A stretch of DNA of 64,000 bases from Candidatus Aminicenantes bacterium. Its GTDB lineage: Bacteria; Acidobacteriota; Aminicenantia; Aminicenantales; JAFGBC01. The notes under the pieces were generated by a model. It saw only the letters and a list, made by a program, of their open reading frames with translations. It did no database searches and was not told where the DNA came from. The stretch lies in NCBI GenBank assembly GCA_963702005.1, contig OY969696.1, positions 3,200,001 to 3,264,000 of the forward strand. The letters run 5' to 3'. Below, in pieces: positions 17,814 to 51,401 of the stretch (position 1 is the stretch's first letter; each line of letters begins with the position of its first letter). The position numbers and the translations under genes were made by a program.

Positions 17814-17842
17814 AATATATGAGCCCGGCCGTCTGAAGTCAA
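17814..17842 (-). promoter_or_regulatory. Putative sigma70 promoter of gpmI; its -35 coincides with the repeat-element end
   Basis: Minus strand TTGACT-17 bp-TATATT. Confidence 0.6.
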
Positions 17843-18038
17843 ATCATCGACACCCATACTAAGCCGTTTCCGGCTTAGTATGAGTGCTGCAAGGCTGCTC
17901 CCCGGCCGAAGCTCCACGGACTAATGCTCATTGGAGCGCCAGTACTCATGAACCGTTTCCGGTTCATGAGTACTGCAAGGCTGGGCTCCGATTTTTAGCC
18001 CCGCTTTCAGAGCGGGGTAGCGTCGGCGAACGGGTCAA
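17838..18038. mobile_element. GTCAA-bounded hairpin mini-element, copy 1 (composite, 201 bp)
   Basis: Begins GTCAAATCATCGAC and ends GCGTCGGCGAACGGGTCAA; 16-bp stems at 17851-17886 and 17940-17975 with TTTC loops; CCCCGCT/AGCGGGG hairpin. Confidence 0.75.
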
Positions 18039-18100
18039 CTCGGAGTGACCGCCTCCCCCCGTTCTGTTATAATTTATTCATTATTACCAAAGGAGGCGCC

Positions 18101-18997
18101 ATGAAACCAAAAATCGCGGTCGCGGTCCTGAGCGGAATCATCTTGGTCACTGCGGGGGCCATCGGAATCCTCCAAGGAGGATCGCCCTCCCTCCAACAAG
18201 AGAAGGTCCCCCTCGTCAAATTCGCCGGGGTCCGGTCCTCGGCTTATGGCATCAAGCCCTTTCCCGAGCCCCAGGAATGGATCAAGGCCATCTCGACCAT
18301 GGGCGGCTATTTCCCGGGATCGACGCCGTGCGCCGTCTGGATCGTCGGCCATCTCAGCCAGCGCCGGAACTGCAAGCTCGATTTCCCCTCGGAGGGAAAG
18401 AGCTATCCCAACGTCGAATTCCTCGACTTCGAGAAGCATGAGCGCTTCCTGAGCGAGTTCGACAAGGCCGGCATCAAGATCTTCCTCCAGGTCGAGCCCG
18501 CCAACGCCGACATGAAAACGCTCATCGACCTCGTCCTGGGCCGCTACAAGAGCCATTCCTGCGTCATCGGCTTCGGGGTCGATGTCGAATGGAACAAGGA
18601 GGCCGATTTCCCGGAAAGAGGCGAGAAGGTCAGCGACGACGTGGCCCGGCAATGGGAAGCCTGGGTCAAGTCTCACAATCCCAGCTACCGGCTTTTCATC
18701 AAGCATTGGGATCAGCTCTGGATGCCGCCGACCTACCGGGGCGACCTCGTCTTCGTGGACGACAGCCAGATCTTCAAGGGCTTCGACGAGATGGCCGCGG
18801 AGTTCGAGGCCTGGGGGAAGTCCTTCGCGTCGAATACGGTCATGTTCCAGATCGGCTACAACTCGGACAAGCCCTGGTGGCAGAAGATTCCCGACGCGCC
18901 CAAGACGATGGGAGAGGCGATCGCGCGCCGGATCTCCCAGGAGTGCGGGATCATCTGGGTCGATTTCAGCCTGCGCGACGTCCTCCCTCTGAAGTAG
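18101..18997 (+). CDS. Exported hypothetical protein, possible TIM-barrel glycoside hydrolase-like
   Basis: AAGGAGG RBS; N-terminal hydrophobic segment; GFGVDVEW motif. Confidence 0.6.
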   Translation: MKPKIAVAVLSGIILVTAGAIGILQGGSPSLQQEKVPLVKFAGVRSSAYGIKPFPEPQEWIKAISTMGGYFPGSTPCAVWIVGHLSQRRNCKLDFPSEGKSYPNVEFLDFEKHERFLSEFDKAGIKIFLQVEPANADMKTLIDLVLGRYKSHSCVIGFGVDVEWNKEADFPERGEKVSDDVARQWEAWVKSHNPSYRLFIKHWDQLWMPPTYRGDLVFVDDSQIFKGFDEMAAEFEAWGKSFASNTVMFQIGYNSDKPWWQKIPDAPKTMGEAIARRISQECGIIWVDFSLRDVLPLK

Positions 18998-19031
18998 GAA
19001 CGGGACGATGCCGTTTCGTCAGGATGTTCGA

Positions 19032-20144
19032 ATGAGGGCCGTTCGCGCCCTCTTCCTCTTTCTGCTCGTCGGCGCAATCATCGGCGGTACGGCGGCCGAA
19101 GCGCGCCCGACCGGGAGCCCGGACCTTATGATCGGGGTCAAGATCTATGAACGCGCGGGGGACTTCCCCGAGCTCTTCCGGGACTGGCGTTCGCTCGGGA
19201 TCAACACGGCCTTCGTCAGCGCGGCCCTGGCCTCGAACCCCGAATTCAGGGGACTGGCCAGGACGAACGGGATCGCCTTGTTCATCATCCTGCCCACCTT
19301 CCAGAACCCCGAGGCTTTGAAAGAAAGACCCGACCAGGCGGCGATCACCTCCGAAGGGAAACCCGCCCGCGAGGAATGGGTCGAGTTCGTCTGCCCGTCG
19401 CGAGAGGATTATCGGACGCGCCACGTTGAATACGTCAAAGGCCTGGTCCGCGATTGCGACCCGGAAGGCATCAGCCTCGACTTCATCCGCTATTTCGTCT
19501 TCTGGGAGAAGGTCTATCCGGACCGAAGCCCCGGCTCTCTGCCCCAAACCTGCTTCTGCCCCGTCTGCCTCGAGCGGTTTCAGAAAGAAACGGGCATCCG
19601 GATTCCCGGGGATCTTGCCGGAACGGTCCGCCAAGCAGAATGGATTTTAAGCCGCCATCTCCGGGAATGGACGGAATGGAAGTGCGGGATCGTTGCCTCG
19701 CTGGTGGAGACCTTGGCCGGCGAAGCGAGGCGGATCAAGCCGGGGATCAAAATCAACCTCCATGCGGTTCCCTGGAGGCGGCGGGATTTTGACGGCGCCC
19801 TCCGGACTATCGCGGCCCAGGACCTGGCCCGGATCGGCCGATCGGTCGACTATATCTCGCCCATGTGCTACCACCACATGGTCCTCCGGACGCCGGACTG
19901 GGTCCATTCGGTCGTCGAGGATTTCGCGGGCGAGGTCCGAGTGCCGGTCATCCCCAGCATCCAAGTCGGCGAAGCTTATATCGATAAGCCTTTGCTTCCG
20001 GAGGAATTCGAGGCGGCTCTCGCCGAAGCCCTGAAACCGCCCTCGCGCGGGGTCGTCTTCTGGAACTGGGATGCCCTGGCCCGGTCTCCCGAAAAAAGGG
20101 AGATCGTCAGACGATTCGGAACTCCCGCGAAGTCGCCTCGATAG
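19032..20144 (+). CDS. Secreted glycoside hydrolase-like protein (GHL10/DUF187-like TIM barrel)
   Basis: Signal peptide; FVCPS, GISLDFIRY, CFCPVC, AQD and DYISPMCYH motifs. Confidence 0.7.
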   Translation: MRAVRALFLFLLVGAIIGGTAAEARPTGSPDLMIGVKIYERAGDFPELFRDWRSLGINTAFVSAALASNPEFRGLARTNGIALFIILPTFQNPEALKERPDQAAITSEGKPAREEWVEFVCPSREDYRTRHVEYVKGLVRDCDPEGISLDFIRYFVFWEKVYPDRSPGSLPQTCFCPVCLERFQKETGIRIPGDLAGTVRQAEWILSRHLREWTEWKCGIVASLVETLAGEARRIKPGIKINLHAVPWRRRDFDGALRTIAAQDLARIGRSVDYISPMCYHHMVLRTPDWVHSVVEDFAGEVRVPVIPSIQVGEAYIDKPLLPEEFEAALAEALKPPSRGVVFWNWDALARSPEKREIVRRFGTPAKSPR

Positions 20145-22080
20145 GCTCCAGCTTCCTGGGAAACCGGTCCCAGTAGTGGCCGAAGTAGCGCATCCGGTAG
20201 GTCCCTAACGGCTGGTCCTCGGGAATAAGCCATTCGATCGTGATTATGGAAGCCCCCCCGGCGTTTTTCCAGCGGAACCATGTGCCGGAATCGGCGTCTA
20301 TCGCCATGGTCGACCAGGAGCCTCCCTCCTTGCGATCGACGGCGAGGTAGGTTCCTTCCGTCCTCAAGTCGTTGTTGGGATAGCCTCCCAGGAAATCCAC
20401 TGAGACTCTGTCGCCCCGTTTGTATTGCTTTTTAGCGTCGTGCATGAGATCGCCGAACGTCCAGCCCGGGATCCTCGAGTCCGGAGTCCGGCGCAGATTG
20501 AGGATCTTGAGCTGGTCCCTGCGGATCGGGAGAGGCGCCGAACCCGGATCGACCGGCCGGCCTTCCTTTAAAGCTTCGGCCAACCGGGCGTACTCCTGGA
20601 GGTAGGCTTCGAGCGTCCAAGGCCCGAACAGGGTCGAAGCCCCCTCGTAGTGCTGCTTGGCGTACTCCTCCCGCGTCGTCGTGTAGCTGCTGTAGGCGTT
20701 GGCGTAGGTTGCGACGACCACGGGAAGCTCCGCTCCTGCGCCGAACACCCTGCGGATCTTGACCTTCAGCCTCCATCCCGCCATGGCCGTCATTTCGCCC
20801 GGATGGGCGACCAGGACGAGTCCGCCGATCTTGATGATCTGGAGGGGAAGGATGGAAGGCGCCAGGGGGACTCCCTTGAAGCGGGCCAGCCCCATGTGAA
20901 GGAGAATGGGCTTCTCGGCATGGCCCTCGACGTAGCCGGGCGGCAGCGCATTCTGGTCCGGCCAATCCACGCCCAGGATCAGGGGAAAAGCCAGTTCCAT
21001 GATTTCGTTGATGAGCGCGGCGTTGCCCACAAAATTCGCCCGGGTCGTCCCTTCCCCCCAGGCCTGGATGTTGAGACCTTTGGAATCCTGCTGGCTGCCG
21101 TTGACCATTCCGTAGCCCAGGGCGGCCGGCCAGGTCCTATTGGCCGTCCCGGGGACGGGGCGGTCGCTCATGTCCCTAAAAGCGTGAAGGGATTGGATAG
21201 GTCCGTCCAGCTCGACCGCCACTGATCCGAATAATTCCTCGGCTTTCCGGAATTGTTTCCGGCCCGCCTCCAAAGCCCTGTCGAGGTCGTGGATGCCGTC
21301 GGGAAATCCCGTGAGGTTCGGGGAATTGTCCCCGCAGCAGGAGTTGGCGAAGGCGGCGACGACGCCCGGATGCTTTTTTTCAAAAAATTCTTCGGCGTAG
21401 CCCTTGTTGTCGCCCGAAACAAGATGGTTCGTCTCGCCCAGGTTGGTGGGATGGCAGGCGAACCAGTTGATCGAGCCCAGCGGAGCGCCCGTCTCCCCGA
21501 CGAACTTGAGGAGGACCATCTCGGGATCGATATCGTAGACGCAGGCCCGCCTCTCCTCCTCGGGATTGTTTAAATACGCGGACAGTGAACGGTTGAACGT
21601 GCAATCCAGGAGGTTCCCCCTGGCCAGGAAAACCTTCCCGGGGGCCAAGGACAGATGAGCCTGGAAGATCGATCGGACGATTCCGTCCACGATGGCGTTG
21701 AAATTCATATCGTTGAAGCCGCGGATGGACGCGTTGTAGACGAAATAATGGGAGTAGCCGCCCGGCCCGCTGTGGGTGTGGGTGGCGGCGATCAATAGGT
21801 TCTCCTCGGTGTAGAGCGCCTTCCCGCCGCTCTGGAGAGACGCCTCGGTCTTGAGACGCTCGACCACCGCCGTCTTGACGGCCAGAGAACACATGCCCAG
21901 ATCCGCCGAGACGAGGGCGATCCGATTTCCCCTGTTCGCGTCCTCGATGATGAATGTCCGGGCGTAGAGCCGGCTCTGGAGACCCTCCCCTTTTTGGAAG
22001 AGGTTCGACATGCCCATGAACCCGAGCTCGGCGCTCGGCCCGGTGATGTCGGCTTTCCCGACGCCTATCCTGAAACCCAT
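20107..22080 (-). CDS. Neutral/alkaline ceramidase
   Basis: GVGKADITG, RLYAR, ATHTHSGPG, WFACHPT, SGDNKGYA, YANAYSSYTTTREEY-QHYEGASTLFGP motifs. Confidence 0.92.
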   Translation of the reverse strand: MGFRIGVGKADITGPSAELGFMGMSNLFQKGEGLQSRLYARTFIIEDANRGNRIALVSADLGMCSLAVKTAVVERLKTEASLQSGGKALYTEENLLIAATHTHSGPGGYSHYFVYNASIRGFNDMNFNAIVDGIVRSIFQAHLSLAPGKVFLARGNLLDCTFNRSLSAYLNNPEEERRACVYDIDPEMVLLKFVGETGAPLGSINWFACHPTNLGETNHLVSGDNKGYAEEFFEKKHPGVVAAFANSCCGDNSPNLTGFPDGIHDLDRALEAGRKQFRKAEELFGSVAVELDGPIQSLHAFRDMSDRPVPGTANRTWPAALGYGMVNGSQQDSKGLNIQAWGEGTTRANFVGNAALINEIMELAFPLILGVDWPDQNALPPGYVEGHAEKPILLHMGLARFKGVPLAPSILPLQIIKIGGLVLVAHPGEMTAMAGWRLKVKIRRVFGAGAELPVVVATYANAYSSYTTTREEYAKQHYEGASTLFGPWTLEAYLQEYARLAEALKEGRPVDPGSAPLPIRRDQLKILNLRRTPDSRIPGWTFGDLMHDAKKQYKRGDRVSVDFLGGYPNNDLRTEGTYLAVDRKEGGSWSTMAIDADSGTWFRWKNAGGASIITIEWLIPEDQPLGTYRMRYFGHYWDRFPRKLEPIEATSREFRIV

Positions 22081-22347
22081 TCGTCCCCCCTTTCTTAAGC
22101 CTGGATGTAGGTTTTTCCGGTCGTCCCCTTCAACCCGTTAAGGATCTCGTTCATATCCTGATCGTCCCAGACCGGCTCCCTTTTCTGAAAGCGGAAAGGG
22201 AAGTCATGGCGAAAGGCTGAATTCAGTTTGAGCAGCGGCCGTTGTAGCCAAGAGCGAAAAAGCCAGGACCATCGCAAAAAATTGGACTGACTCGTTTCTC
22301 GTTATTTACCTCCTGAGGCCATTTGAGCCTATTTTCCCGATTTTTTT

Positions 22348-22553
22348 TAGGAAATTGCTTTTTCCTGGGCATGCTGAAAAGCCGTTCCCCGCGCTGAACC
22401 TCCCCTCCTGATCACGATCGAATTATATTTCCAGCCGCGCGGGGATGTCAAGATAGGCCAAAAGCGACACGAACGTCGGCTTGAGGTGACGGATGATCCT
22501 GTCCGCCGCGGCATAATCCGTGATTGAGGACAGACCATCGGGTCGACTTCGTA
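22348..22553 (-). pseudogene. Remnant of an IS91-like (Y2) transposase C-terminus and probable element end
   Basis: YEVDPMVCPQ in one frame, then ITDYAAADRIIRHLKPTFV in another; resembles the YEVDPLxCPxCG...MK-IAFITD...I-RIL-HL pattern with the middle deleted. Confidence 0.6.
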
Positions 22554-22558
22554 AGAGT

Positions 22559-23848
22559 TTATTGAAGATGCAGGCGCCCAAGGGTTGACATCGTCTTGAA
22601 CAGGTTCTGACACAATATCTCCGTCGACGTAAGGCCGCTCGCCTGCGCAGGGGGAAGGGCATAGAGATCGTAGGTATCGGGAGGCACGGGCAAACGGTAA
22701 TGACCCTTAGCATCCGATATAGTAATTAGCCAAACCCAATCGCCCGGCTTGTTGCTGGCAGCCGCACCTATCTTGCTGAAACCGATGGTACCCGATTTGA
22801 CGATCTTCTTCCTCGCATCAGTGACTTTGCCCGAAAGCACCACGCCGTTCTGCGCCACCAGGTTGAACATTTTATCAGAGGCGGGCATCACCAGATCGAA
22901 AGACGTCTTGGTGGCCTTTCCCTTATATCCAGGATTCATTCCTGATAAATAGGGCAAAAAGACGAGTGTAAAACTTCCCTTGAGAAGATAGCCTGAATAC
23001 GTCCCATTCATGACGATAAACTGCATGATGAACATGCCTTTGACATAGGGATTACTTTTCTGGAAGACACCCAAGACGCCGCTCAATCCAATATTTCCCG
23101 AATCTTTAACGGTCCCCCAGATCTTGTAACCTTTTGGCGCTTTGATGTTCTCGACTGTATCCTTGGAAATCGTGACTCCGTCTGTTTTGAAAGTCATGGG
23201 GATGGGTTGCATCGTGCTGCTATAACCCAAAAGCGGCATGAGGATGAGCTTGTAGCTTCCGGCGGGGACCGCCATCGCATATTTCGTCGAGTCGAGGCCC
23301 GATCCGAACTGGGCGGCAAAGATCGTCGAATTCGCGTTGCCTGAAGGGAATGCCATCAACGTGCCCGTGAACATGCGGATCGTCCCGGACGGCGGGTAGA
23401 CCTTTCCGCTCATGAGATAGCCATTCTTGAGTTTGATCTCCCCCATATTCGTGTCGTTAACGATAGAGACGTCCTTGACCGTTGAAGGCACGAGCCGAGA
23501 AAATGTGGTCGGGTCGATGGATGTGCTCAGTGGCGGCGTGATGTGAACAGAGTAGCTTCCCGCCTGGAGGGGTAAAGAAAACTTGCCCGTGGCATCCGTC
23601 GTGGTTTCCCATACGTCTCCGATGTTGGGATTAGGAACTTGTGCAAAGGCATTTTTGAGCGGAACGCCCAGGGCATCTTTTACGATTCCGGAAAGAAAAT
23701 ATCCGTCCGGAAGCGTGATGTTCAATGCCTTGTCACTGATGATCTTGACTTTCAGCTTGTGGAATTCGGTCGTTCGTGATTGAGCCGCGATCCCGAGTTG
23801 CGCGATAAGAAACGTCAGAATGAGCGCACCATAAATGGCCTTTTTCAT
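22559..23848 (-). CDS. Secreted protein with repeated carboxypeptidase-regulatory-like (Cna-B/transthyretin-like) domains
   Basis: Signal peptide; repeated SG-VxD...G-P...TDAxGxY/F units; lower GC than the flanks. Confidence 0.7.
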   Translation of the reverse strand: MKKAIYGALILTFLIAQLGIAAQSRTTEFHKLKVKIISDKALNITLPDGYFLSGIVKDALGVPLKNAFAQVPNPNIGDVWETTTDATGKFSLPLQAGSYSVHITPPLSTSIDPTTFSRLVPSTVKDVSIVNDTNMGEIKLKNGYLMSGKVYPPSGTIRMFTGTLMAFPSGNANSTIFAAQFGSGLDSTKYAMAVPAGSYKLILMPLLGYSSTMQPIPMTFKTDGVTISKDTVENIKAPKGYKIWGTVKDSGNIGLSGVLGVFQKSNPYVKGMFIMQFIVMNGTYSGYLLKGSFTLVFLPYLSGMNPGYKGKATKTSFDLVMPASDKMFNLVAQNGVVLSGKVTDARKKIVKSGTIGFSKIGAAASNKPGDWVWLITISDAKGHYRLPVPPDTYDLYALPPAQASGLTSTEILCQNLFKTMSTLGRLHLQ

Positions 23849-24174
23849 TTTTTCCTCCTTAATTATTCCACGCGGCGACCTTATCCCCGCCTCTCGCCTG
23901 ACAACATCACATGATATGACCAGGAATTTCGTTTTGGCCGCTGCAATAATCTTCTTTCTTTCAATCTTGGATAGAAAAAGCTAACTCTCGTATAAAAAAT
24001 AGCACTCTGCATCTGAGGCTGTCAACATAATGCATATCACTCAGGGCAGATCCCTGCCAATATTATAAGAAATCAAAACATTAGGAACGCCTGCAGCGAT
24101 GTATTCGCTGCGCGCTTCGACCATCTGGCGTCAACGCTCGTTGACCATGCCTAAAAGAGGGATTCGGGGAAAAA

Positions 24175-25212
24175 CTACATCGCTCTCCTGTAAACGACGA
24201 GGCACTTTTTGTTTTCTAGGGCGACCCACTTGAAAACGGTGTTTCCTTTTTCCTGGAATACGACGATGTCCAACGGAGAGGGGAACTTTATCCCATCGCT
24301 GAAAGCAATATTCTCGTAGCTGAAAAGGGCGTACTTCTTGCCGTCGGCGCTGGGATAGAAGGAACAAGGATTGATCCAACTGGTTTTAAAAAAGGGCGTC
24401 CCGTTTATATAAAGCTGTCCGCCGACCTCATAATAGAGGTCGTTGCCGTTGGCCGGGTACCAAAACGAACCCGAGTCAAAGTCTTTGTTGAAAGGGCCGA
24501 ACTTCTTTCCATCGATGGTATAAAGAAACGTGGTGTTATCGTTCTCGTTCAACTTTTCGGGAGGTATCGAAGCCGCATTTTCCATTTCGCCCATAGTGAG
24601 AGTTCCCGTGCACACCACGGCGGCGTTCTTGCCGTTGGGGCTGAACTTGAAATCCACGGGGATGCCCCCGAACGAGGTTTTACGACCGTCGCTGTCAGCG
24701 AACCACGCCCGGTCCTTGTCGCTCGCCGTGTAATAGGCCCGAGCTCCGTCCGGGGTGACCCGGCTCGAGAAAATGATGAGATGGGGCCCGAACGTCTTCC
24801 CGCTGAACTGAAGTATCTGTCCTCCTTTACCGTCGGAATCGGTCGAGACAACCATGTCTTCCGGAGCCGGCTCCGGCTTATACTCGGCACAATCGCGATT
24901 CCTTTCACAGGTTTCTTTCTTGCCCTCATAGGCCGCCTTCATGGCGTCCTCCAGCTTGGCGAACGGCCCTTGCTTCTTGCCGTCCCTGAAAACAAAGAAC
25001 GGCCCGTTCTCCCCTTTGCGGATGACCAGGACCACGTCCTCGCTATCGGCACAAACGGCGATCTTACTTTCGGCCAGCATGATCTCTTCCCCCGGCTCGA
25101 GGCAATAGGCAACGCTCCGTCCGACGGGCGGTTGCTGGGCGGACGACACGGCCGCAAGAACGATCAGTCCGGCGAAGAAAACCATGGCCGACGCGGTCAG
25201 TTTTCGATTCAT
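24175..25212 (-). CDS. Secreted hypothetical protein, probable beta-propeller
   Basis: AAGGAGG RBS before ATG 25212; signal peptide; repeated DGKK-GPF and SPDG/SADG-type motifs. Confidence 0.65.
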   Translation of the reverse strand: MNRKLTASAMVFFAGLIVLAAVSSAQQPPVGRSVAYCLEPGEEIMLAESKIAVCADSEDVVLVIRKGENGPFFVFRDGKKQGPFAKLEDAMKAAYEGKKETCERNRDCAEYKPEPAPEDMVVSTDSDGKGGQILQFSGKTFGPHLIIFSSRVTPDGARAYYTASDKDRAWFADSDGRKTSFGGIPVDFKFSPNGKNAAVVCTGTLTMGEMENAASIPPEKLNENDNTTFLYTIDGKKFGPFNKDFDSGSFWYPANGNDLYYEVGGQLYINGTPFFKTSWINPCSFYPSADGKKYALFSYENIAFSDGIKFPSPLDIVVFQEKGNTVFKWVALENKKCLVVYRRAM

Positions 25213-25228
25213 AATTTCCTCCTTGGAT

Positions 25229-25981
25229 TTATTTGGCGGCGGGAACAAGGTGACTTCTGAAATAATACGCCGCCACGTCCCCGTAATTATAACGAGTCCC
25301 GGCAAAGAGCAACTGGATGTGAAACCTCCTAACCTCCATCATTTTCCGGAGAAACTTTTCACCCTGGGCAAAACCGGCGTTGTAGGCGGTGGCATAGAAA
25401 CGCAGTTTCTCAAGATCCGTGGCGAAGTCAAGCTTCACGTACAACTTGTCCATCACCATCATAAAAAGCCGGAGATAACTCACTTGCCAGCGCAGATCAT
25501 CGAGCCTGAGCACGCGCTCGTTGCGCAGTTTTGGAGTCACCCCGGATTCAAAGGCCGCGATCCCCGCGACCGACTTCTCGTCCTCGGAAAAGAGCAGGTT
25601 GTACTCTCGCTCGACCTGCTCTGCGAATGTCGGCTTCATCTGGAAATGCCCGACTGAGAAGTTTGCGTATTGCTGCCCATACTGGACATATAGAACTTTG
25701 AGTGCTCGCACCTGGATCTCGTCCTCCAGGGCCCGGAAACGGATGATCTCTGGAAACACCACGGCCAGGGCGATCCGGGTCTCTAATAGAGGAAGCCGAA
25801 GCGAGTCAGCGATCCAGGAGTTCCGTCGCAGGAACTGCTCGGCATCCGAGTACTTCGCGCCGAAGATTGAAGCATAGTCTTCTCCCGCAGAAAAAGATGA
25901 TAGAACCAGGACAAGGAGAGGGATTCCGGCGAGTCTCCAGGCCCGCCCCGCCGGGCGGCCTCCAGCTGATAGATTGTCCAT
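25229..25981 (-). CDS. Exported hypothetical protein with lysozyme/SLT-like motifs
   Basis: VVFPE, SVGHFQMKP and ATAYNAG motifs. Confidence 0.55.
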   Translation of the reverse strand: MDNLSAGGRPAGRAWRLAGIPLLVLVLSSFSAGEDYASIFGAKYSDAEQFLRRNSWIADSLRLPLLETRIALAVVFPEIIRFRALEDEIQVRALKVLYVQYGQQYANFSVGHFQMKPTFAEQVEREYNLLFSEDEKSVAGIAAFESGVTPKLRNERVLRLDDLRWQVSYLRLFMMVMDKLYVKLDFATDLEKLRFYATAYNAGFAQGEKFLRKMMEVRRFHIQLLFAGTRYNYGDVAAYYFRSHLVPAAK

Positions 25982-26255
25982 CAGTTTTCCTGATCTTGTG
26001 GCCAGTCCTTGAGAATCAACGCTTCACATCGCCATACGACTCTAAAGCATCGGGCCGAACGATGTCAATGAACTTATTCACTGCATTAGTGCCGACTTGA
26101 GCGTAGATTCCTTTAGCCAAAGCTGATAGTGCTCATTGGGCGCTGATCATAAAGGGTGCTGCCCAGGCTGATCGACAAGTCACGTACCTTTCAGCACGGC
26201 CAGCCGCTTCCTGGCATGCTTAAGCTCGGGATGACAGGGTCGGCATCTTTATTGC

Positions 26256-26309
26256 TCACTTCTCCAATCCGATCTTCTTCAAGATCATCTCAAACCTTGG
26301 GTCGTCCCG
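26256..26309 (-). pseudogene. 3'-end remnant of a kinase-TPR-type gene
   Basis: Translates RDDPRFEMILKKIGLEK*, matching the C-terminus of the kinase at 56911-59067 (RSHPRFQALLAKLG*). Confidence 0.55.
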
Positions 26310-26381
26310 GCCGCGCAAAGACGATAGACTCCCGCTCCCAGTGATCACGAAATAATATTCCAAGTCACGCCCCAGGCGTCG

Positions 26382-27590
26382 TCATCCCAGTCGGCGTTTG
26401 AGAAGCGAGAAAGACGCGGCCAGGAGGAGTCCGGCCGTGCCGCAGCCGAACCAGAGGGCGCTCCCTCCGAAGCGGCCATAGACGGCGGTCCCGAGCACGG
26501 GCCCGATGATGAAGGCCAACGAGAAAGCGAAGCTGAAGAGCCCCAGATATCGCCCCCGGCTTTCCGGACCGGCGCGGCCGCTGATGAGCGACGTGAACAG
26601 CGGCATGCTCAGCATTTCGCCGAACGTCCAGACGGCCACCGTCATAGCCGCATAAACGAAACCTCGTCCGAGAGGAATCAGGCCGAAGCCAAAGCCCAAC
26701 AGCAGGAAGGAGATGTTGATCATCCGGGTCAAGGGATATTTCCGGATGGACTCCATCAAGGCCATTTCGAGAAGGACGATCATGACGGTGTTCACCGCCA
26801 AGAGCCGCCCGATCGCATCTTCGGCCAGGCCGTAGACGCTTCGCATATAAAGGGGGAAGGTTGACAGGAGCTGGATGAAAATAACCCCAAAGCCGATGGT
26901 GACGAGCATAAGGCCGAGGAAGGGTCCGTCTCGCCAGGGCGAACGGCCGCAGCCGACAGCTCGGACCTCTTTCTTTTCGGCGATCCGGAGACCGCTCTCG
27001 GCCTTCGGCCAGATCAGGACGAACAAGCCTGCCGCGGCCAGACAGGTCAGCCCGTCGACCCAGAACAGGAGCCGGTAGTCCCGCAGGGCGAGTAGACCTC
27101 CCACGGCGGGACCGATTGTCACGCCTAAATTATTGGCGAGACGGTTGAGGGCGAATCCTTTGACCTGGAGTTCCGGCGGACAGACGCGGGACATGGACGT
27201 GGCGTTGGCCGGATATAGGCAACCGGCGAAGAGGCCGAAGACTAAAAGGGCCGGGAGGACTAATGCCGATGACCGGATCTGGCCGATTGCGATCAGCAAT
27301 AATCCGGACGAGGCCAGGCTGAGCTTCTGGACCGAAGTCGAGCCGATCCGATCCGACAGCCACCCTCCCAGATAGGCTCCCCCTAGAGACCCAACGCCAT
27401 AGAGGCTCAGCGCCCGCCCCGCCTTAGCCGCGGAGAAACCGAGCTTTCGCGTAAAGTAGAGGCTCAGGAAAAAGATGACCATGGCCCCCGCGGCGTTCAC
27501 GAGGTTGACGGCGAACAGAATCCAGGCTTCACGCGGGAGCCCGGTGTAGGCCCTGCGGTAGGTGGCGATGAGGTTCTTGAGCGGATTCAT
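26382..27590 (-). CDS. MFS transporter
   Basis: About 12 TM helices; GGWLSDRIG motif A. Confidence 0.92.
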   Translation of the reverse strand: MNPLKNLIATYRRAYTGLPREAWILFAVNLVNAAGAMVIFFLSLYFTRKLGFSAAKAGRALSLYGVGSLGGAYLGGWLSDRIGSTSVQKLSLASSGLLLIAIGQIRSSALVLPALLVFGLFAGCLYPANATSMSRVCPPELQVKGFALNRLANNLGVTIGPAVGGLLALRDYRLLFWVDGLTCLAAAGLFVLIWPKAESGLRIAEKKEVRAVGCGRSPWRDGPFLGLMLVTIGFGVIFIQLLSTFPLYMRSVYGLAEDAIGRLLAVNTVMIVLLEMALMESIRKYPLTRMINISFLLLGFGFGLIPLGRGFVYAAMTVAVWTFGEMLSMPLFTSLISGRAGPESRGRYLGLFSFAFSLAFIIGPVLGTAVYGRFGGSALWFGCGTAGLLLAASFSLLKRRLG

Positions 27591-27631
27591 GCGATACTTC
27601 GGCCCATTGTATCAAAACTGCATCCGGAGAG

Positions 27632-27821
27632 GTCAAATCATCGACTCCCCGGCCTGAAGGCCGGGGCTTGTTCATGATTAACCCTGAGCCTCGCTCTCAT
27701 CCCCGCCTTGAAAGGCGGGGCTTGGCATCGGCGAACGGGTCAACCCCTCGACACCCATACTAAGCCGTTTCCGGCTTAGTATGAGTACTGCAAGGCTGGG
27801 TAGCGTCGGCGAACGGGTCAA
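27632..27821. mobile_element. GTCAA-bounded hairpin mini-elements, two tandem units (27632-27743 and 27739-27821)
   Basis: Unit A has CCCCGGCCTGAAGGCCGGGGCTTG and CCCCGCCTTGAAAGGCGGGGCTTG hairpins (IS200/IS605-end-like); unit B is 82/83 identical to 51319-51401; the units share the central GTCAA. Confidence 0.8.
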
Positions 27822-28528
27822 GCGCCGCGGGAGGAACCGGGCGCCTTTCGTCCGGCCTTCTTGAAGGTCAGCGAGATGCCGCTCGAGCTCGAACGGTCGA
27901 TCCGCGTCTCGGCGTCGGGCAGTCGCCCGGCAGCGCCCAGGAATTCCCGGATGCCGTGCATGAACTCGAGGTTGAGGACGTTGTGGGCGGCGAAACAGCC
28001 GCCGGGCGCGACTTTGGGCCAAAGCAGTTCGAGATACCTCTTGTACCACTCCTTATCGGCGTCGACGAAGATAAAGTCGAACGGCCCGGCCAGCCGGGGC
28101 ACGATCTCATGGGCGTCTCCGAGCTGCGCGTCGATCAGGCCGTCGAGGCCGGCCTTTTTGAAATTGGCCACGGCCGTTCCGTGACGGCCTTCGTCGATCT
28201 CGATGGTCGTGAGCCGTCCCCCCGTCTTGCTCAGGGCCCAGGCGATCCAAGTCCCGGAACGCCCCGTCGAGGTTCCGACCTCGAGCGCCCTGGTATAGCC
28301 GCGTTCGACGATGAGGTCGAAAAGAGCCTTGCCATCCTCTTCGCGGATGTTCTCATCGTGCCAGCTTCGCCGCTGCGAATCGAGAAACGCCCGGACCTTC
28401 TCGTCCAAGCTCGGCCCGGACTGGATCGCCCCGGCCGGACGGATCATCCCCGTCAATCCCCATCCGAAAAGAACGGCCAACGAACCCGATAGGATTCTCC
28501 ATCTAAGGGCGCCGCGCGTAAACGTCAT
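27818..28528 (-). CDS. Class I SAM-dependent O-methyltransferase with an N-terminal signal-like segment
   Basis: LEVGTSTG, TIEID and FDFIFVDADK motifs. Confidence 0.88.
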   Translation of the reverse strand: MTFTRGALRWRILSGSLAVLFGWGLTGMIRPAGAIQSGPSLDEKVRAFLDSQRRSWHDENIREEDGKALFDLIVERGYTRALEVGTSTGRSGTWIAWALSKTGGRLTTIEIDEGRHGTAVANFKKAGLDGLIDAQLGDAHEIVPRLAGPFDFIFVDADKEWYKRYLELLWPKVAPGGCFAAHNVLNLEFMHGIREFLGAAGRLPDAETRIDRSSSSGISLTFKKAGRKAPGSSRGA

Positions 28529-28548
28529 GTCCCTTCCTCGCTTTCCGC

Positions 28549-29451
28549 TCAGAATTGAAACCCAAGAATGGAATCGGGGTCGACCCTGGCATCGCAGATT
28601 TTAACCCCCCAATGGAGATGGGGTCCCGTCGAGCGCCCCGTCGAGCCGACCCGCCCGATCGGGTCGCCCTTCCGGACGGCGTCGCCGCGCTTGACGAGGA
28701 GCCGGCTGAAATGGCAGTAGAAGGTGAACACGCCCAGGCCGTGATCGATGACGACCGTGTTCCCGGCCAGGTAGAGCTCGCCGGAGTAAACGACCGTCCC
28801 GGCGTTCGCGGCCCGAACAATCTCGTTCGGCCCGGCCTCGACGTCGACGCCGGAATGCAGGGATCGGGGCACGCCGTTGTAGATCCGCAGCTCGCCGAAA
28901 TTGGGCAGCGCCTTCCCCGGATGAGGAGGCTCAAACGCGCCTTCTCCCAGCCAGGCGGGCGTCCTGATCCCGTAAAGCTGAGTCAGGAGCTCGGCTTCGC
29001 GACGGATCCGCTCTTCGGCTTCGGGCGGATAGAAGACGTACTCGTCCTTGACCGTGAGCTTTTTCCTGGCGAACCGCTTGGGCAGGATTTCGACCGCCCG
29101 CTTCAGGGAGAGCGGGCCGCGGTCGTCCGTCCGATCCTCGACCTCCAATTCGTAGCGGCCGGGCTTGAGCGCGGCATCGAGCCCGATGAAGGCCAAGCCG
29201 GTCGCGGGATTCCCCTGGACATCGATGGGATAATCCCGTCCCAGAAAGCGGACGGTCGTTTTCAGCCCGGGGGGATTGTCGGCAAGCCGGACTAGGATCG
29301 CTTCGCCCGGCTGCCAGGAGCGGAGCGTCAGTTCGAGATTCGCCCCGGACGGGGTCTGGATAACCGTCGTCTCAGAGCCGGCAAGAACGAACGGCCCGCC
29401 GAGCATTGCGCCAAAGATGAGTCCGGAGACGAAGCAACGCCCTATCCTCAA
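28549..29451 (-). CDS. M23 family metallopeptidase
   Basis: HSGVD, IDHG and STGPHLHW motifs. Confidence 0.92.
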   Translation of the reverse strand: MRIGRCFVSGLIFGAMLGGPFVLAGSETTVIQTPSGANLELTLRSWQPGEAILVRLADNPPGLKTTVRFLGRDYPIDVQGNPATGLAFIGLDAALKPGRYELEVEDRTDDRGPLSLKRAVEILPKRFARKKLTVKDEYVFYPPEAEERIRREAELLTQLYGIRTPAWLGEGAFEPPHPGKALPNFGELRIYNGVPRSLHSGVDVEAGPNEIVRAANAGTVVYSGELYLAGNTVVIDHGLGVFTFYCHFSRLLVKRGDAVRKGDPIGRVGSTGRSTGPHLHWGVKICDARVDPDSILGFQF

Positions 29452-31157
29452 GCCTGCTCCCCTCGCTTCAGGAGCCGTCCCGGCAGCCGGCCGGTATGCT
29501 CGCCCTTCTCGATAACGACGGCACCGTTGACGACGACGTATTCGACGCCGATCGGATATCGGGCCGGCTCCGTCCAGGTCGCCCGGTCGATGATCTTGGC
29601 CGGGTCGAAGACCGCGATGTCGGCGGCCGCGCCGGGCTTAAGGATGCCGCGGCCCTCCAGCCGAAAGCGCCGGGCCGGAACCGAAGTGATCTTGCGGATC
29701 ATCTCCGCGAGCGGCAGGAGCTTTTCCTCCCGGACATACTTGCCGAGGGCTCGGGGGAACGTCCCGTAGAGCCGCGGGTGAGGCTTGCCCTTCCCAAGAA
29801 TCCCGTAGGGCGCGACGGCAGCCCCGTCCGAGGCCACGCCGACGAGCGGATGGGCCAGAATTCGCCTCAGGTTGTCCTCGCTCATAACGAAGGTGATCAT
29901 CCCGACGCGCCCCTCTTCTTCGATCAGAAGGTCCCTCATGAATTCGTAAGCGTCCTTGCCGGCATGGGCGGCCGCCTCGCGGACGGTCTTTCCTTCAACC
30001 CAGCGGTTCTTCTCGGTGTGAACGGACGACAGGAGAATTTTATCCCACGATCCTAGGCTCTTTTCAGCCTCGGCCAGGGCCGACCGGAGCTTGTCCTGAA
30101 GGGCCGGGTCTTTGAGGCGCGCGATGAAATCCTCGGTCCGGCCTTCCCTCGCCCACATCGGAAAATAGAGGCTGAGGCCGGTCGCCCCCGCGATGTAGGG
30201 ATAGCGATCGCAGAAGACGTCGACGCCCTCGCGCCGGGCCGCCTCGATCTTGGCGATGGCCTGGTCGAGCTTGGGCCAGTTCCGGGGATAGCCGATTTTG
30301 AAATGGGAGATCTGGAGCGGAAGCCCGCCCCCCCGCGCGATCGCGATCGCTTCGTCGATGGCCTTGAGGACCTCGTCCTCCTCGTCCCTCATGTGGGTCG
30401 CGTAGAGGCCGCCGTAGCCGGCGGCGACGCGGGCGAGCCCGATGATCTCGTCCGTATCGGCGAAGCTTCCCGGCGTATATTCGAGGCCGGTCGAAAGGCC
30501 GACGGCGCCCTGCTCCATGGCGCGGGCGGTCAGCGTCTTCATGAGCTCGCTTTCGGAGGACGTCGGTTTCCTGTCGCTGAAACCCATGGCTGCGGCCCGG
30601 ATCGTGCCTTGTCCGACCAGGGTCGCGTAGTTAAGGGCGGTCCCGCGCTCGCGGAGGCGGGCGAAAAAGCCGTCGAGGTCCTGCCAGCTCAGGTCGAGGT
30701 CGTATTCCTCCTTGAGGGCTTTGGCGTCGTCGGCCCGGGTGATATCCGTGACCGGGAACGGGCTGCCCCCGCAATTACCGCTGATGAGGGTCGTGACCCC
30801 CTGCCGGATGGCGCTTTCGGCCCTGGGATTGACCAGGAGTTCGGCCGCGGTATGATTGTGGGCGTCGATAAAGCCGGGGGACACGGCCAGACCGGAGGCG
30901 TCGATGACGATTTTGGCGCGCGCTTGAGCGAGCCTTCCCACCGCCCTGATCTCCGATCCTGAGACGCCGAGGTCGGCCGAGACGCCGTCGGCGCCCGCGC
31001 CGTCATACACCGTCCCTCCGCGGATGAGGAGGTCGAATTCGCCGCCCTTCACGACCTGGGCTCGCCCGATACGGCCTCCCGCGCCCGCCCCGACCCCGGC
31101 CGCCGCTGCCGCCCGGGCCGCTCCCTTGATAAATTCCCGCCGTGTTATTATTGCCAT
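29448..31157 (-). CDS. N-acyl-D-amino-acid deacylase (amidohydrolase) with a Tat signal
   Basis: TRREFIK Tat motif at ATG 31157; PGFIDAHNH, QGVTT-GNCG, THMRDE, SH-K, SDG and HPRLYGTFPR motifs. Confidence 0.9.
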   Translation of the reverse strand: MAIITRREFIKGAARAAAAAGVGAGAGGRIGRAQVVKGGEFDLLIRGGTVYDGAGADGVSADLGVSGSEIRAVGRLAQARAKIVIDASGLAVSPGFIDAHNHTAAELLVNPRAESAIRQGVTTLISGNCGGSPFPVTDITRADDAKALKEEYDLDLSWQDLDGFFARLRERGTALNYATLVGQGTIRAAAMGFSDRKPTSSESELMKTLTARAMEQGAVGLSTGLEYTPGSFADTDEIIGLARVAAGYGGLYATHMRDEEDEVLKAIDEAIAIARGGGLPLQISHFKIGYPRNWPKLDQAIAKIEAARREGVDVFCDRYPYIAGATGLSLYFPMWAREGRTEDFIARLKDPALQDKLRSALAEAEKSLGSWDKILLSSVHTEKNRWVEGKTVREAAAHAGKDAYEFMRDLLIEEEGRVGMITFVMSEDNLRRILAHPLVGVASDGAAVAPYGILGKGKPHPRLYGTFPRALGKYVREEKLLPLAEMIRKITSVPARRFRLEGRGILKPGAAADIAVFDPAKIIDRATWTEPARYPIGVEYVVVNGAVVIEKGEHTGRLPGRLLKRGEQA

Positions 31158-31186
31158 CGGTCCTCGTCTTTCATGAAGATCATAAC

Positions 31187-31221
31187 AAAAAAGGTGACGC
31201 TTAACCATGTTAAGCGTCACC
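31187..31221 (-). terminator. Perfect 13-bp hairpin with a T6 tail (terminator or REP-like)
   Basis: GGTGACGCTTAAC-CAT-GTTAAGCGTCACC (31193-31221) flanked by A6 on the left and ATTTT on the right. Confidence 0.6.
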
Positions 31222-31257
31222 ATTTTATTAAATCGGGAAGCCGGAGACGGATGGAAT

Positions 31258-44112: not shown

Positions 44113-44183
44113 GTCAACCCCTCAACCCCCAGCTATAAGGCGGGGCTGTTCGGGATGACACTGAGGCTCTGCGAACGTGTCAA
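44113..44183. mobile_element. Degenerate GTCAA-bounded mini-element, followed by a hairpin remnant to about 44222
   Basis: Begins GTCAACCCCTC, ends GCGAACGTGTCAA; TCCACGGAC...GTCCATGGA follows, similar to 17913-17936. Confidence 0.6.
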
Positions 44184-44243
44184 TCCCCTTCGCGGGATTC
44201 CACGGACGTTAGTCCATGGAGCTTCAGGCGAGGCGAGAGAGGC

Positions 44244-48004: not shown

Positions 48005-48054
48005 TCCCCCCCACCCCGGCCGATTTCGCCCCAAAAAGAGACATGCGATCGTTC

Positions 48055-48083
48055 TTGACAAAAAGTGTCCATTTATATAAAAT
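48055..48083 (+). promoter_or_regulatory. sigma70 promoter of the LuxR-family gene (near-leaderless)
   Basis: TTGACA-17 bp-TAAAAT, 10 bp before ATG 48094. Confidence 0.75.
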
Positions 48084-48093
48084 TTGCCTAAAA

Positions 48094-48846: not shown

Positions 48847-48875
48847 GGACGGTCGGGGGATCCGACGAGGACGCC

Positions 48876-49298
48876 ATGACAAAAAAAGCCCCGGCCAAGA
48901 GTTCTTCCAAGAAGACGAGCCTGCTCGTCGACGATTCCCTTCACAACCGACGGCGAGAGTGGCGCCTCGACCTTCCCTTGGTGGTCGTCGTTGAAGGCAA
49001 GCTCCCCCGCGGCAACAAATTCCGCGAGCCGACCCAGCTCGAAAACATCAGCTCGGGCGGGGCTTATTTCTGTCTCGATTCGGGGATCATCGTCGGGTCC
49101 AAGCTCAACCTCGTCATCGACCTTCCCAAAAGGATGACCAAAGGGAGACGGGTCAAGCTCATGGTCGGCGGGACCACGGTCCGGCTCGAAGACGTCGGTA
49201 AAATGGTCAAAAAGCAGGGTGTCGCCGTCCGTTTTTTTAAACGTTATCGGTTCCTGCCTCCCAACCCCTCCTCCCCTCCCAAGCGGGCGGGAGGCTAG
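48876..49298 (+). CDS. PilZ domain protein
   Basis: RRREWR (RxxxR) and NISSGG (D/NxSxxG) motifs; GVAVRF. Confidence 0.8.
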   Translation: MTKKAPAKSSSKKTSLLVDDSLHNRRREWRLDLPLVVVVEGKLPRGNKFREPTQLENISSGGAYFCLDSGIIVGSKLNLVIDLPKRMTKGRRVKLMVGGTTVRLEDVGKMVKKQGVAVRFFKRYRFLPPNPSSPPKRAGG

Positions 49299-49303
49299 GG
49301 ACC

Positions 49304-50047
49304 GTGCTGACCGTCGCGCTTACGGGAGGAATCGCCAGCGGAAAATCCGTCGTCGCTTCCATCCTGGGCGACCTCGGCTGCTTCATTCATACGGCCGACG
49401 CCGTCGCCCGCGAGCTCATGGCGCCGGGAGGGCCGGCCTTCGCCAAGGTCGTGGCCCGCTTCGGCCCGTCCATTCTCGCCCTCGACGGGTCGATCGACCG
49501 CGCCCGGCTGGGGGCCGTCGTTTTCGCCGACGCCTCGGCCCGGGCCGCCCTCAACGCCATCGTCCATCCGCTCGTGCTGGCAAAAAAAAAGAAGGTCATG
49601 GCCGCCCTCGAGCGGGACGGCCGCACCTCCATCTACGTTTCCGAGGCCGCCTTGACCGTCGAGGCGGGATTCCAGGCTTACTTCGATACGGTCGTCGTCA
49701 CGACCTGCCGGCCCGAGATTCAGCTCCGCCGGCTCATGGACCGAGATGGGATCGGCGAGGAGGAGGCCCTCCGCAAGATCCGCTCCCAGATGCCGGCCGG
49801 GGAGAAAGTCAAGTTCGCCGATCACGTCATCGACACGTCGGGGAGCTTGGCCGAAACGGTCGAGCGGACGGAGGAAGTCTGGCGGGCCCTGGTTCAAGCC
49901 GCCGCTCTCAAGGAAAAGCCTAAGCGCGCAGGGCGGCCGCAAAGAGAGGGATCAGCAGCTCGTGGGGCCCGACAAAGTAAAACCCCCGGCCCTTCTCGCC
50001 GACGGGGCGGCGGACGACGTTCTGGTAGGGCCGGTAGTGATGGATGA
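49304..50047 (+). CDS. coaE: Dephospho-CoA kinase
   Basis: ALTGGIASGKS, AD, IDRARLG-VF, LNAIVHP and RSQMP motifs; 3' end overlaps the convergent gene. Confidence 0.95.
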   Translation: MLTVALTGGIASGKSVVASILGDLGCFIHTADAVARELMAPGGPAFAKVVARFGPSILALDGSIDRARLGAVVFADASARAALNAIVHPLVLAKKKKVMAALERDGRTSIYVSEAALTVEAGFQAYFDTVVVTTCRPEIQLRRLMDRDGIGEEEALRKIRSQMPAGEKVKFADHVIDTSGSLAETVERTEEVWRALVQAAALKEKPKRAGRPQREGSAARGARQSKTPGPSRRRGGGRRSGRAGSDG

Positions 50048-50984
50048 AATCGAAGACGGCCGTTGAGAAATTCTCGACCTTGGTCCCTTTGTTCCGGACG
50101 TAGTTGAGAGCTTTGAGAAAGACCTCGGGCAGGATGACGGCCGAGCCGGCGTTGATGAAGACGCCACCCTCCCCCAGCCCCTCCAGGATGCCGCAGAGCA
50201 GGAAGAAATCCTGAAGAGACGTCTTCCCCAGCGCCTCCCCGCTCGCTTGGGGATGGACATGGATCGTGTCCGTTCCGAGCGCGACGTGGACGGTCGCCGG
50301 AATGCCCTGGCGCTGGGCGGCCGCGAGCAGGCTGAGATCTTTGTGCGGGAAATCGGAGGCGGCGATCATCCGCCCGACGGCTTCGCCCAGACCGAGCCCG
50401 GCCCGGGCGCCTTCGTTGATGGCGCGGTTGATGAGCTCGCCCGTCTCCCGGGCCATCCCGAACCGGCCGTCCCGGATCCGGTCCTCGACGTCCTCCGAGG
50501 TTTGGCCGGCGAAGGCGATCTCGAAATCGTGGATGACGCCTGCGCCGTTGAGGACGAGGGCCGTGATCCAGCCTTCCCGGATGAGGTCGATCAGGACGGG
50601 GCTCAGGCCGACCTTGATGACGTGGGCGCCCATTCCGAAAACGACGGCCCGCTCCCGGCTCCGGGCGCTCCGGACCAGACCGCAGAACTCACGGAGGTCC
50701 TTGGCGGACAGGAAGTCGGGAAGGTTGGAGAGGAAACGGCCGACCGTGTCCTGGGAGGTCGAGGAGCGGGCGAACTGCCCGACATGAACCTTGCTCGGCC
50801 GCGAGCGAAGGGAATAGGTCTTTAATCCCTGGCGGGCGGGCGGGCGGACCACGGCCCCGCTTTGGGTCTGAAGGCTCGACTCCGTTCGGCCCTTGTTCGA
50901 GGCGCCGCGGCGCCGCCGGATAGTCTTGGTGGTCTTCGTAGTCTTGGGCATGGTCGGGATCGGACGGCCCGGGTCGGCCGTCAC
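49920..50984 (-). CDS. Deoxyhypusine synthase-like protein (GSU2086-type)
   Basis: RPSKV, GMGAHVIKVGL, NGAG-IHDFE, FGMARETG and GSAVILPEVFLKA motifs; start at 50984 or 50951. Confidence 0.7.
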   Translation of the reverse strand: MTADPGRPIPTMPKTTKTTKTIRRRRGASNKGRTESSLQTQSGAVVRPPARQGLKTYSLRSRPSKVHVGQFARSSTSQDTVGRFLSNLPDFLSAKDLREFCGLVRSARSRERAVVFGMGAHVIKVGLSPVLIDLIREGWITALVLNGAGVIHDFEIAFAGQTSEDVEDRIRDGRFGMARETGELINRAINEGARAGLGLGEAVGRMIAASDFPHKDLSLLAAAQRQGIPATVHVALGTDTIHVHPQASGEALGKTSLQDFFLLCGILEGLGEGGVFINAGSAVILPEVFLKALNYVRNKGTKVENFSTAVFDFIHHYRPYQNVVRRPVGEKGRGFYFVGPHELLIPLFAAALRA

Positions 50985-51256
50985 TTGTTGGCCAGGTGCT
51001 TGAGGTCCTGGCCGGAGCGGAATTTTACGCGCCGGCCTTCGGCGATCTTGATCTGTTTACGGCGGCGGATGTCGCGGCCGAAGCCCGTCTTCTTGGCCAC
51101 GACCTTGAAACTGCCGAACCCCCGGATCTCGATTTTCTCGGACGCGGCCAGCGCGCGCTTGAGGGCGTCGAGGATGGTCTCCACGATCTGCAAAGACTTG
51201 GCCCTGTTCAATTCGGTCTTCTTCTCAATTACAAGGGCGATGTCGTTCTTGATCAT
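50981..51256 (-). CDS. HU/IHF family DNA-binding protein
   Basis: MIKNDI..., IEIRGFGSF, GR and VKFR-G motifs. Confidence 0.93.
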   Translation of the reverse strand: MIKNDIALVIEKKTELNRAKSLQIVETILDALKRALAASEKIEIRGFGSFKVVAKKTGFGRDIRRRKQIKIAEGRRVKFRSGQDLKHLANK

Positions 51257-51318
51257 GGGAGAACTCCTCTGCTCCGCAAAACGTAGGCACATAATAATTA
51301 AACAAACACCCTAGAAAA

Positions 51319-51401
51319 GTCAACCCCTCGACACCCATACTAAGCCGTTTTCGGCTTAGTATGAGTACTGCAAGGCTGGGTAGCGTCGGCGAACGGGTCA
51401 A
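51319..51401. mobile_element. GTCAA-bounded hairpin mini-element, 83-bp single unit
   Basis: 82/83 identical to 27739-27821; the only change is in the hairpin loop (TTTC to TTTT). Confidence 0.85.

Follow-up and report, generated by a model that had tools for sequence, protein, structure and literature searches.

A stretch of DNA from a Candidatus Aminicenantes bacterium (hereafter the window: 64,000 nucleotides, G000:C1:3200001-3264000, within a single-contig genome of 4,309,361 bp and 60.4% G+C) carries, at four loci, short hairpin elements flanked by the pentanucleotide TTGAC. They belong to a family of about 130-167 copies in the 4.31-Mb genome, a number far beyond chance, which probably consists of non-autonomous mobile elements of 63-330 nt that behave like gene-less derivatives of IS200/IS605 insertion sequences. 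Insertion at the −35 core of a promoter would push the old −35 upstream, and the element's own TTGAC would take its exact place, so that the spacing to the −10 box would be left unchanged. A first-pass annotation, made from the letters of the window alone, had proposed such a non-autonomous element of the IS200/IS605 (Y1/HUH) type, and its proposal is supported by empty sites at orthologous positions, by the orientation of the copies relative to the replichores and by an enrichment of −10 boxes. As no Y1 gene with these ends was found in the genomes and loci examined, we infer the mechanism itself from the anatomy and the strand bias.

Insertion Sites and Anatomy

The ends of the element are defined by about ten comparisons of filled and empty alleles across the genome of the window (G000) and two congeneric genomes, G001 and G002. 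For this purpose, 40 element loci of G001 were taken and their flanks were searched in G000, which gave clear empty sites for L037, L038, L040, L069, L073, L075, L076, L077 and L078; the alignments of L039 and L074 were ambiguous, and most other loci had rearranged or unalignable flanks. Turnover is evident from the same set, since of about 40 G001 copies examined 3 are also present in G000 (L027, L071 and L084) and about 9 face clearly empty G000 sites. Read on the TTGAC strand, the element is 5'-CCGTTCGCCGAC ... hairpins ... GTCGA(GGGG/TGAT)TTGAC-3', and it lies directly 3' of a TTGAC-like target that already exists in the empty site, with no duplication.

Empty alleles with a single TTGAC, for which the first-pass annotation had advised a search, do exist, at gpmI in G002 and at the L040 site in G000; both are conserved predicted promoters, and in both the 17-bp spacing is unchanged by the insertion. 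At gpmI, the G002 allele has a single GTCAA at the promoter position, beside the conserved −10 box, and reads TTGACT-17-TATAGT at the same place where G000 has TTGACT-17-TATATT. L040 is likewise canonical, its empty allele holding one TTGAC in TTGACA-17-TATAAA. The remaining empty sites are near-cognate rather than canonical: the pentamer before the left end is CTTAC, TTAAC, TTCAC, TTGGC, CTGAC or ATGAC, and the empty allele contains this target-side pentamer, or a one- or two-base variant of it, with no counterpart of the promoter-side TTGAC. Some copies also sit inside conserved coding sequence.

These comparisons alter one part of the earlier description. TTGAC is indeed found on both sides of the element, and the two copies are not equivalent: the one on the −10 side is the element's own 3' end, and the distal one was there beforehand as the target. 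With TTGAC as the last bases of the element, each insertion recreates its target, and this fresh target explains the six head-to-tail tandems in which neighbouring copies have one TTGAC in common, including the second locus of the window.

Copies in the Window

Inspection of the sequence confirmed the four loci together with the ends first described for them. The features, with positions counted from the first letter of the window, are as follows.

17838..18033, minus strand: element copy 1, 196 nt; own 3'-terminal TTGAC at 17838-17842; several nested hairpin cassettes inside
18034..18038, minus strand: target TTGAC of copy 1; putative −35 core before insertion, now 196 bp farther upstream
17814..17842, minus strand: putative gpmI promoter; −35 TTGACT 17837-17842 from the element end, 17-bp spacer, −10 TATATT 17814-17819
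27632..27738, minus strand: element copy 2a, 107 nt, with two hairpins; inserted 3' of the TTGAC that ends copy 2b
27739..27816, minus strand: element copy 2b, 78 nt, with one long hairpin; ends in TTGAC, 27739-27743, the target of 2a
27817..27821, minus strand: target TTGAC of copy 2b
44113..44178, minus strand: element copy 3, decayed, 66 nt; own TTGAC 44113-44117 upstream of the isochorismatase-family gene
44179..44183, minus strand: target TTGAC of copy 3
51319..51396, minus strand: element copy 4, 78 nt, 99% identical to copy 2b; own TTGAC 51319-51323 upstream of the HU gene
51397..51401, minus strand: target TTGAC of copy 4
4339..4343, minus strand: empty site in G000 (insertion point between 4338 and 4339); a 110-nt G001 copy lies exactly here

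The −35/−10 readings given earlier also hold, namely TTGACT-17-TATATT for gpmI, TTGACC-19-TACAAT with TG for the MFS gene, TTGACA-15-TATTAT or -18-TATAAA for the isochorismatase gene and TTGACT-15-TTTAAT for HU. The four gene names are backed by Pfam (iPGM-type phosphoglycerate mutase, MFS transporter, isochorismatase-family protein and HU). At gpmI, the element appears to supply the −35 box of the putative promoter, and the orthologous G002 site lacks the element. Copies 2a and 2b form a head-to-tail tandem with one common TTGAC, and 2a ends, upstream of the MFS gene, in a TTGAC (27632-27636) that is 19 bp away from TACAAT. The third locus (44113-44183) is a decayed copy with a degenerate left-end motif, for which an informative orthologous site was sought and not found. 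The HU locus has the same junction in G001 (GTCAA joined to GATCGC) with a different, longer interior and an IS110 end, which indicates that interiors are remodelled after insertion. At the empty site at 4339..4343, the target is near-cognate, TTAAC in G001 and TCAAC in G000.

Several further observations concern the surroundings of these copies. Neither G001 nor G002 has a counterpart of the segment 27591-28548, which comprises copies 2a and 2b and a gene for a 236-aa O-methyltransferase-like protein (27818-28528). This gene and the tandem elements are thus missing together from both congeners, where the flanks are directly adjacent, and the segment forms a roughly 950-bp indel with one edge coinciding with the elements. 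Next to the third locus, positions 44184-44235 hold another dispersed module (…CGCGGGATTCCACGGAC…) with 26 copies at no more than one mismatch; in other Aminicenantes genomes, this CGCGGGATTCCACGGAC module is inserted within the hairpin loop of the element. Beside the HU element, a free canonical promoter, TTGACT-17-TATAAT, at 51467-51495 faces a plus-strand gene. Short-read contigs of four wetland metagenome runs placed on window positions 12001-32000 end at element edges (e.g. 17842 and 27631), and no clean empty-allele joint was found among them. No Rfam family reached its gathering score between positions 17000 and 52000.

Family Size and Spread

A search of G000 for the end motifs gave 97 starts and 98 ends at 133 loci, and a BLAST sweep of the same genome with all complete copies gave 167 regions with a total of 18,237 bp. 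The promoter-side GTCAA is present in 116 of these regions, the distal one in 93 and both in 71. Complete copies measure 68-333 nt when both TTGAC copies are counted.

The family occurs in 10 of the 41 nearest genomes and in 30 of 246 genomes of the order, with a patchy distribution by family (2/2, 20/87, 6/27, 1/20 and 0/96). Copies of the 112-nt type from different families of the order share 84-90% identity. Public records containing the element are, by title, metagenome-assembled genomes (MAGs) of Candidatus Aminicenantes or Acidobacteriota. Three typical loci (L131, L141 and L154) lie on contigs of MAGs titled 'uncultured Eubacteriales bacterium', which reflects either mis-binning or mis-labelling, or transfer beyond Aminicenantes. 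A literature search (supplements excluded) found no published description of such a family; within the available part of a Streptomyces study (PMC12415229), TTGAC is mentioned only as a predicted target-adjacent motif (TAM) of TnpB.

Among regions of at least 60 nt, 6 of 130 lie wholly within called open reading frames (ORFs; G000 560275, 645547, 1893083, 2484234, 2534115 and 2545340), and each time the TTGAC strand is the sense strand. Since the common length of 108 nt is a multiple of three, such copies may be in-frame insertions.

Strand Preference

The orientation of the copies follows replication. In G000, dnaA lies at 504,097-504,579, and the cumulative GC skew, after detrending, is lowest at 502,572 and highest at 2,758,723; element orientations are best divided at 475-500 kb and 2.65-2.8 Mb. 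With respect to these landmarks, 135 of 167 regions, and 97 of the 116 with a terminal TTGAC, have the TTGAC strand as the lagging-strand template; the bias that the first-pass annotation had suggested tabulating is therefore present, at 81-84%. Of 3213 called genes, only 1722 (53.6%) run in the direction of replication. Consequently, the common orientation of the copies in the window, which had been noticed from the start, stands as an observation and has its cause in a genome-wide replichore rule, not in gene direction alone. An IS200-like element resident in the same genome serves as an internal control, its tnpA-sense strand being the lagging-strand template in 9 of 11 copies.

For IS608 and ISDra2, the left end inserts 3' of a specific tetra- or pentanucleotide, and both excision and insertion favour the lagging-strand template, according to the available part of PMC5027513. 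The element described here shows the same use of one defined strand on the lagging-strand template, a preference that characterises IS200/IS605-type elements (same source, same part). Movement as single-stranded DNA at the replication fork, by a Y1 (HUH) transposase acting in trans, would explain why the TTGAC strand is found on the lagging-strand template.

Target Preference and Promoters

Among 126 left ends in G000, 96 follow TTGAC, 16 follow ATGAC, CTGAC or GTGAC, 6 follow NTCAC and 2 follow TTAAC, with no constraint on positions farther upstream. The base after the insertion point (n=116) is T in 56 cases, A in 49, C in 11 and G in none. Free intergenic TTGACN sites have A in 529, T in 237, C in 376 and G in 363 cases, which puts occupancy at about 19% of sites with T, 8.5% with A, 2.8% with C and 0% with G. 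At free promoter-like sites the sixth base is A in 66% and T in 15%. This order differs from that of occupancy, and the preference for T or A is thus a property of the element and not of promoters only.

The position of the terminal TTGAC relative to genes was judged from our own crude longest-ORF calls. The next gene downstream lies on the same strand in 99 of 116 copies, with a median of 52 nt to the ORF start. A strict −10 box (at least 4 of 6 matches to TATAAT including A2 and T6, with a spacer of 16-18) was found at the following frequencies.

Element copies: 61/116
Free intergenic TTGAC sites: 389/1505
Free sites 25-150 nt upstream of a gene: 263/542
Free coding sites: 277/7829

The enrichment over free intergenic sites, another of the comparisons suggested at the outset, persists after matching for the sixth base, with 38.9 copies expected to have a −10 box and 61 observed. 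Split by following base, the box is present in 38 of 49 copies with A (256 of 529 free sites) and in 22 of 56 with T (60 of 237 free sites). Of promoter-like intergenic TTGAC sites, 53/258 on the lagging-strand template carry an element and 8/192 on the leading-strand template. The enrichment may result from targeting or from retention; the data fit either and the two cannot be told apart.

In 61 of 116 copies, a −10 box stands 16-18 bp from the terminal TTGAC, which gives them the sequence part of an outward-facing −35, or hybrid-promoter, feature. The claim that the element's own end restores the −35 box is borne out by the 17-bp spacing kept at gpmI and L040, and at L075 the box was even upgraded. 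There, the G001 flank before the element is TTCAC; without the element the site reads TTCACA-17-TAATTT and with it TTGACA-17-TAATTT, indicating that the insertion improved a near-consensus −35 box. The rebuilt promoters would presumably still fire.

Hairpins and Mosaic Interiors

Constant sequence is limited to about 14-27 nt at one end of the element and to 14 nt at the opposite end. The interiors between them are mosaics of hairpin cassettes that can replace one another and are also found on their own. A set of 47 distinct two-hairpin copies retains both GC-rich hairpins. In the same 47 copies, the outer stem at the terminal TTGAC covaries, with AACCCC/GGGGT in 15, AATCAT/ATGATT in 10, AATCCT/AGGATT in 4 and AACCCT/AGGGTT in 3; these stem pairs were set by hand, the long outer stem having escaped an automatic consensus fold with DNA parameters. 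When folded as single-stranded DNA, three of the four window copies score better than every one of 200 shuffled sequences, with z scores of -9.4, -3.5 and -4.1 for copies 1, 2a and 2b, and the decayed copy 3 folds no better than its shuffles (z -0.57). Spacing differs between the two sides, with about 18 nt separating the left end from the first hairpin and 10-15 nt following the last one. Pairing of the IS608 style, between a guide next to the hairpin feet and a cleavage site, was sought and no convincing case was found. Many copies have GTAG near the CCGTTCGCC end; others have CTTGG, GTGG or CTTAG instead.

The cassettes are themselves invaded. An IS110-family insertion with a 345-aa DEDD transposase (PF01548 and PF02371) lies within a hairpin cassette of the element at L055:513-1840 (G000 3156012-3157339), where it splits the sequence between GTATGAG and GTACTGC; other copies lie near G000 4076524, 3583921, 2354090 and 988015. 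All of them, 4 intact and 1 broken, stand beside hairpin cassettes, and the 5' non-coding part of this insertion sequence contains a reversed cassette copy, so that it looks like an element that homes to these hairpins.

Comparison with Known Systems

Gene-less derivatives of IS200/IS605 elements are known as palindrome-associated transposable elements (PATEs). IS608 has the target TTAC and ISDra2 the target TTGAT. Like these systems, the element inserts 3' of a fixed pentanucleotide without duplication, as would be expected of a PATE-like, non-autonomous member of the IS200/IS605 type, and its ends are not inverted repeats and have hairpins near them. Its spacings of 18 and 10-15 nt recall the 19 and 10 nt of IS608. 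In contrast to IS200/IS605 elements, no tnpA, tnpB or iscB with these ends was found in the genomes and loci searched, and the right terminus of the element equals its target, whereas in IS608 the right terminus, TCAA, differs from the target TTAC. Furthermore, its target is the core of the −35 box, its short types form only one hairpin, and its interior is made of exchangeable hairpin cassettes.

The repetitive extragenic palindrome (REP), BIME and REPIN repeats with their RAYT (TnpA-REP) proteins resemble the element in being high-copy extragenic hairpin repeats, in the presence of RAYT-like Y1 genes in the genome and in the putative enzyme being single-copy and acting in trans. They differ from it because the element flanks no RAYT-like gene, has distinct ends and a strict target, and does not conserve GTAG. 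Hybrid promoters that arise from an outward-facing −35 hexamer at an insertion-sequence end are known for IS1, IS2, IS257 and others, and here too a resident −10 box receives its TTGAC, at a workable distance, from a mobile element's end. Unlike those insertion sequences, the element also targets the resident −35, giving a like-for-like replacement rather than the chance creation of a promoter; it has no genes, and on one strand it is present at about a fifth of the promoter-like sites. The Correia (NEMIS) elements of Neisseria are small, abundant and gene-less, often lie beside genes, as the present elements do, and can carry promoter parts; none of their 26-bp inverted repeats, TA duplication and supposed DDE-type mobilisation applies here.

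Search for the Mobilising Enzyme

Several results weigh against the assignment to IS200/IS605. The tnpA (Y1) gene between the same ends, for which the first-pass annotation had proposed to look, was absent from all 11 genomes examined (G000 and 10 related ones), and in 28 family loci from public MAGs the right end lay 53-513 nt away or was missing, with no Y1 gene. No TnpB was found. A Y1 element is present as 11 near-identical IS200-like copies of about 612 bp with a 150-aa TnpA (G000 717274, 1259993, 1524908, 1832480, 1845480, 2083742, 2579953, 2614818, 3162563, 3577622 and 3781633), and its ends are unrelated to those of the element. Each of the three RAYT-like Y1 genes of G000 is flanked by its own distinct repeat family, not by this element, and the 312-aa one co-occurs with the element only weakly, being present in 17 of 30 genomes that bear the element and in 70 of the 216 that do not. 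The folds do not show which strand is active, as stem mismatches are balanced between G-T (17) and C-A (17, by our own count), and the 78-nt type has one hairpin rather than two subterminal ones, so that hairpins near both ends without terminal inverted repeats are a trait of the main types only. On the promoter side, part of the −10 enrichment is due to the element's preference for T or A after TTGAC and to the tolerance of insertions between genes, and the gene calls behind it are the crude ones mentioned above.

A loose motif scan of G000 for distant pairs of left and right ends, noisy at 2 mismatches, returned only IS110 insertions as real long cases. The three RAYT-like genes encode proteins of 217, 312 and 250 aa that match Pfam PF01797; their best NCBIfam match, NF047646, is below its cut-off. 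In several element-rich genomes (G005, G025, G131, G184 and G164), RAYT-like genes are the only Y1 genes found. The candidates for the mobilising enzyme are the three RAYT-like Y1 proteins of G000 or a transposase that is no longer present.

The repeats next to these Y1 genes deserve a separate remark. The GGGGTCAAACCTACAC repeat, with about 60 copies in the genome, flanks the 312-aa RAYT-like gene at G000 713758-714693, forming a classical REP/RAYT-like pair, and several of the IS200-like copies are inserted into this same palindromic repeat. An inverted doublet of it occupies window positions 12566-12634, where one metagenome contig has an 18-nt insertion.

Alternative Explanations

The alternative closest to the preferred assignment, and a special case of the Y1 idea, is that the elements are REP- or REPIN-like repeats dispersed by a single-copy RAYT-like Y1 protein, which would place them in the REP family. 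The presence of three RAYT-like genes, which are the sole Y1 genes in several element-rich genomes, and GTAG near the CCGTTCGCC end of many copies speak for it. Nevertheless, those genes are flanked by other repeats, the GTAG is not conserved, the co-occurrence with the 312-aa gene is weak, and a strict pentanucleotide target with distinct left and right ends is typical of IS200/IS605 rather than of REP sequences; we therefore consider this explanation unlikely, though it keeps some weight.

A somewhat less likely option is that the same target is used by an enzyme other than a Y1 transposase, for example an RNA-guided DEDD recombinase of the IS110/IS1111 type with an 'AC' core, or another site-specific recombinase. 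At non-canonical sites, only AC is common to both junctions, as a 2-bp core would give; the resident IS110-family element, with its 4 intact and 1 broken copies, is always beside hairpin cassettes of the family; and no Y1 partner was found. However, the ends of that IS110-family element are unrelated to those of the hairpin element, and the hairpin stems are maintained through compensatory change. In addition, the strand bias of 81-84% matches that of the resident IS200-like element (9/11), and we know of no replichore-linked strand rule for the integration of double-stranded circles.

It is very unlikely that the elements are primarily a host-selected module upstream of promoters (an insulator, a protein-binding or a structured-RNA unit), with their spread being secondary. 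The pile-up at promoter-like sites (61 against 38.9 expected), the 84-90% identity of the 112-nt type across families of the order and the conserved structure would be in line with such a role. Against it, presence and absence differ at orthologous sites of congeneric genomes, copies lie within conserved coding sequence, interiors are freely swapped and invaded by other elements, no Rfam match was obtained in the part of the window searched, and orientation tracks replication.

Finally, a classical cut-and-paste miniature inverted-repeat transposable element (MITE) with terminal inverted repeats and a 5-bp TTGAC target-site duplication, which the TTGAC on both sides of 71/167 regions might suggest, is hardly credible given at least 6 non-canonical insertions without a promoter-side TTGAC in the empty site (flanks sharing 1-2 bases), ends that are not inverted repeats (about 6-7 of 12 positions by eye) as a DDE-type element would have, and the strong strand bias.

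Biological Implications

If the assignment to gene-less IS200/IS605 derivatives holds, a selfish element has solved the landing problem in a compact genome by copying a part of the host promoter, and about 20% of promoter-like TTGAC sites on one strand of the genome already carry a copy. The family also carries a warning for annotation, as contigs break at copies, in-frame copies are possible within genes, and nearby promoter predictions are easily misread.

A bolder and distinctly more tentative reading is that the −35 box is the niche of the element, its tTGAC(T/A) target and TTGAC terminus having perhaps co-evolved for neutral or promoter-improving insertion at sigma-70-type promoters, possibly driven in trans by a domesticated RAYT-like enzyme. 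Were this true, the upstream regions of co-directional genes would be rewired about five times more often than those of head-on genes, because insertion would need the lagging-strand template. Binding sites of activators and UP elements would be displaced by 60-330 bp, near-consensus −35 boxes would be upgraded (TTCACA to TTGACA), and the element would act as a landing pad for hairpin elements and IS110-type insertions.

Under the broader assignment to mobile IS200/IS605-like elements, the family would amount to a natural experiment on the importance of the sequence upstream of the −35 box, as well as a source of promoter-up changes and of strand-asymmetric regulatory turnover.

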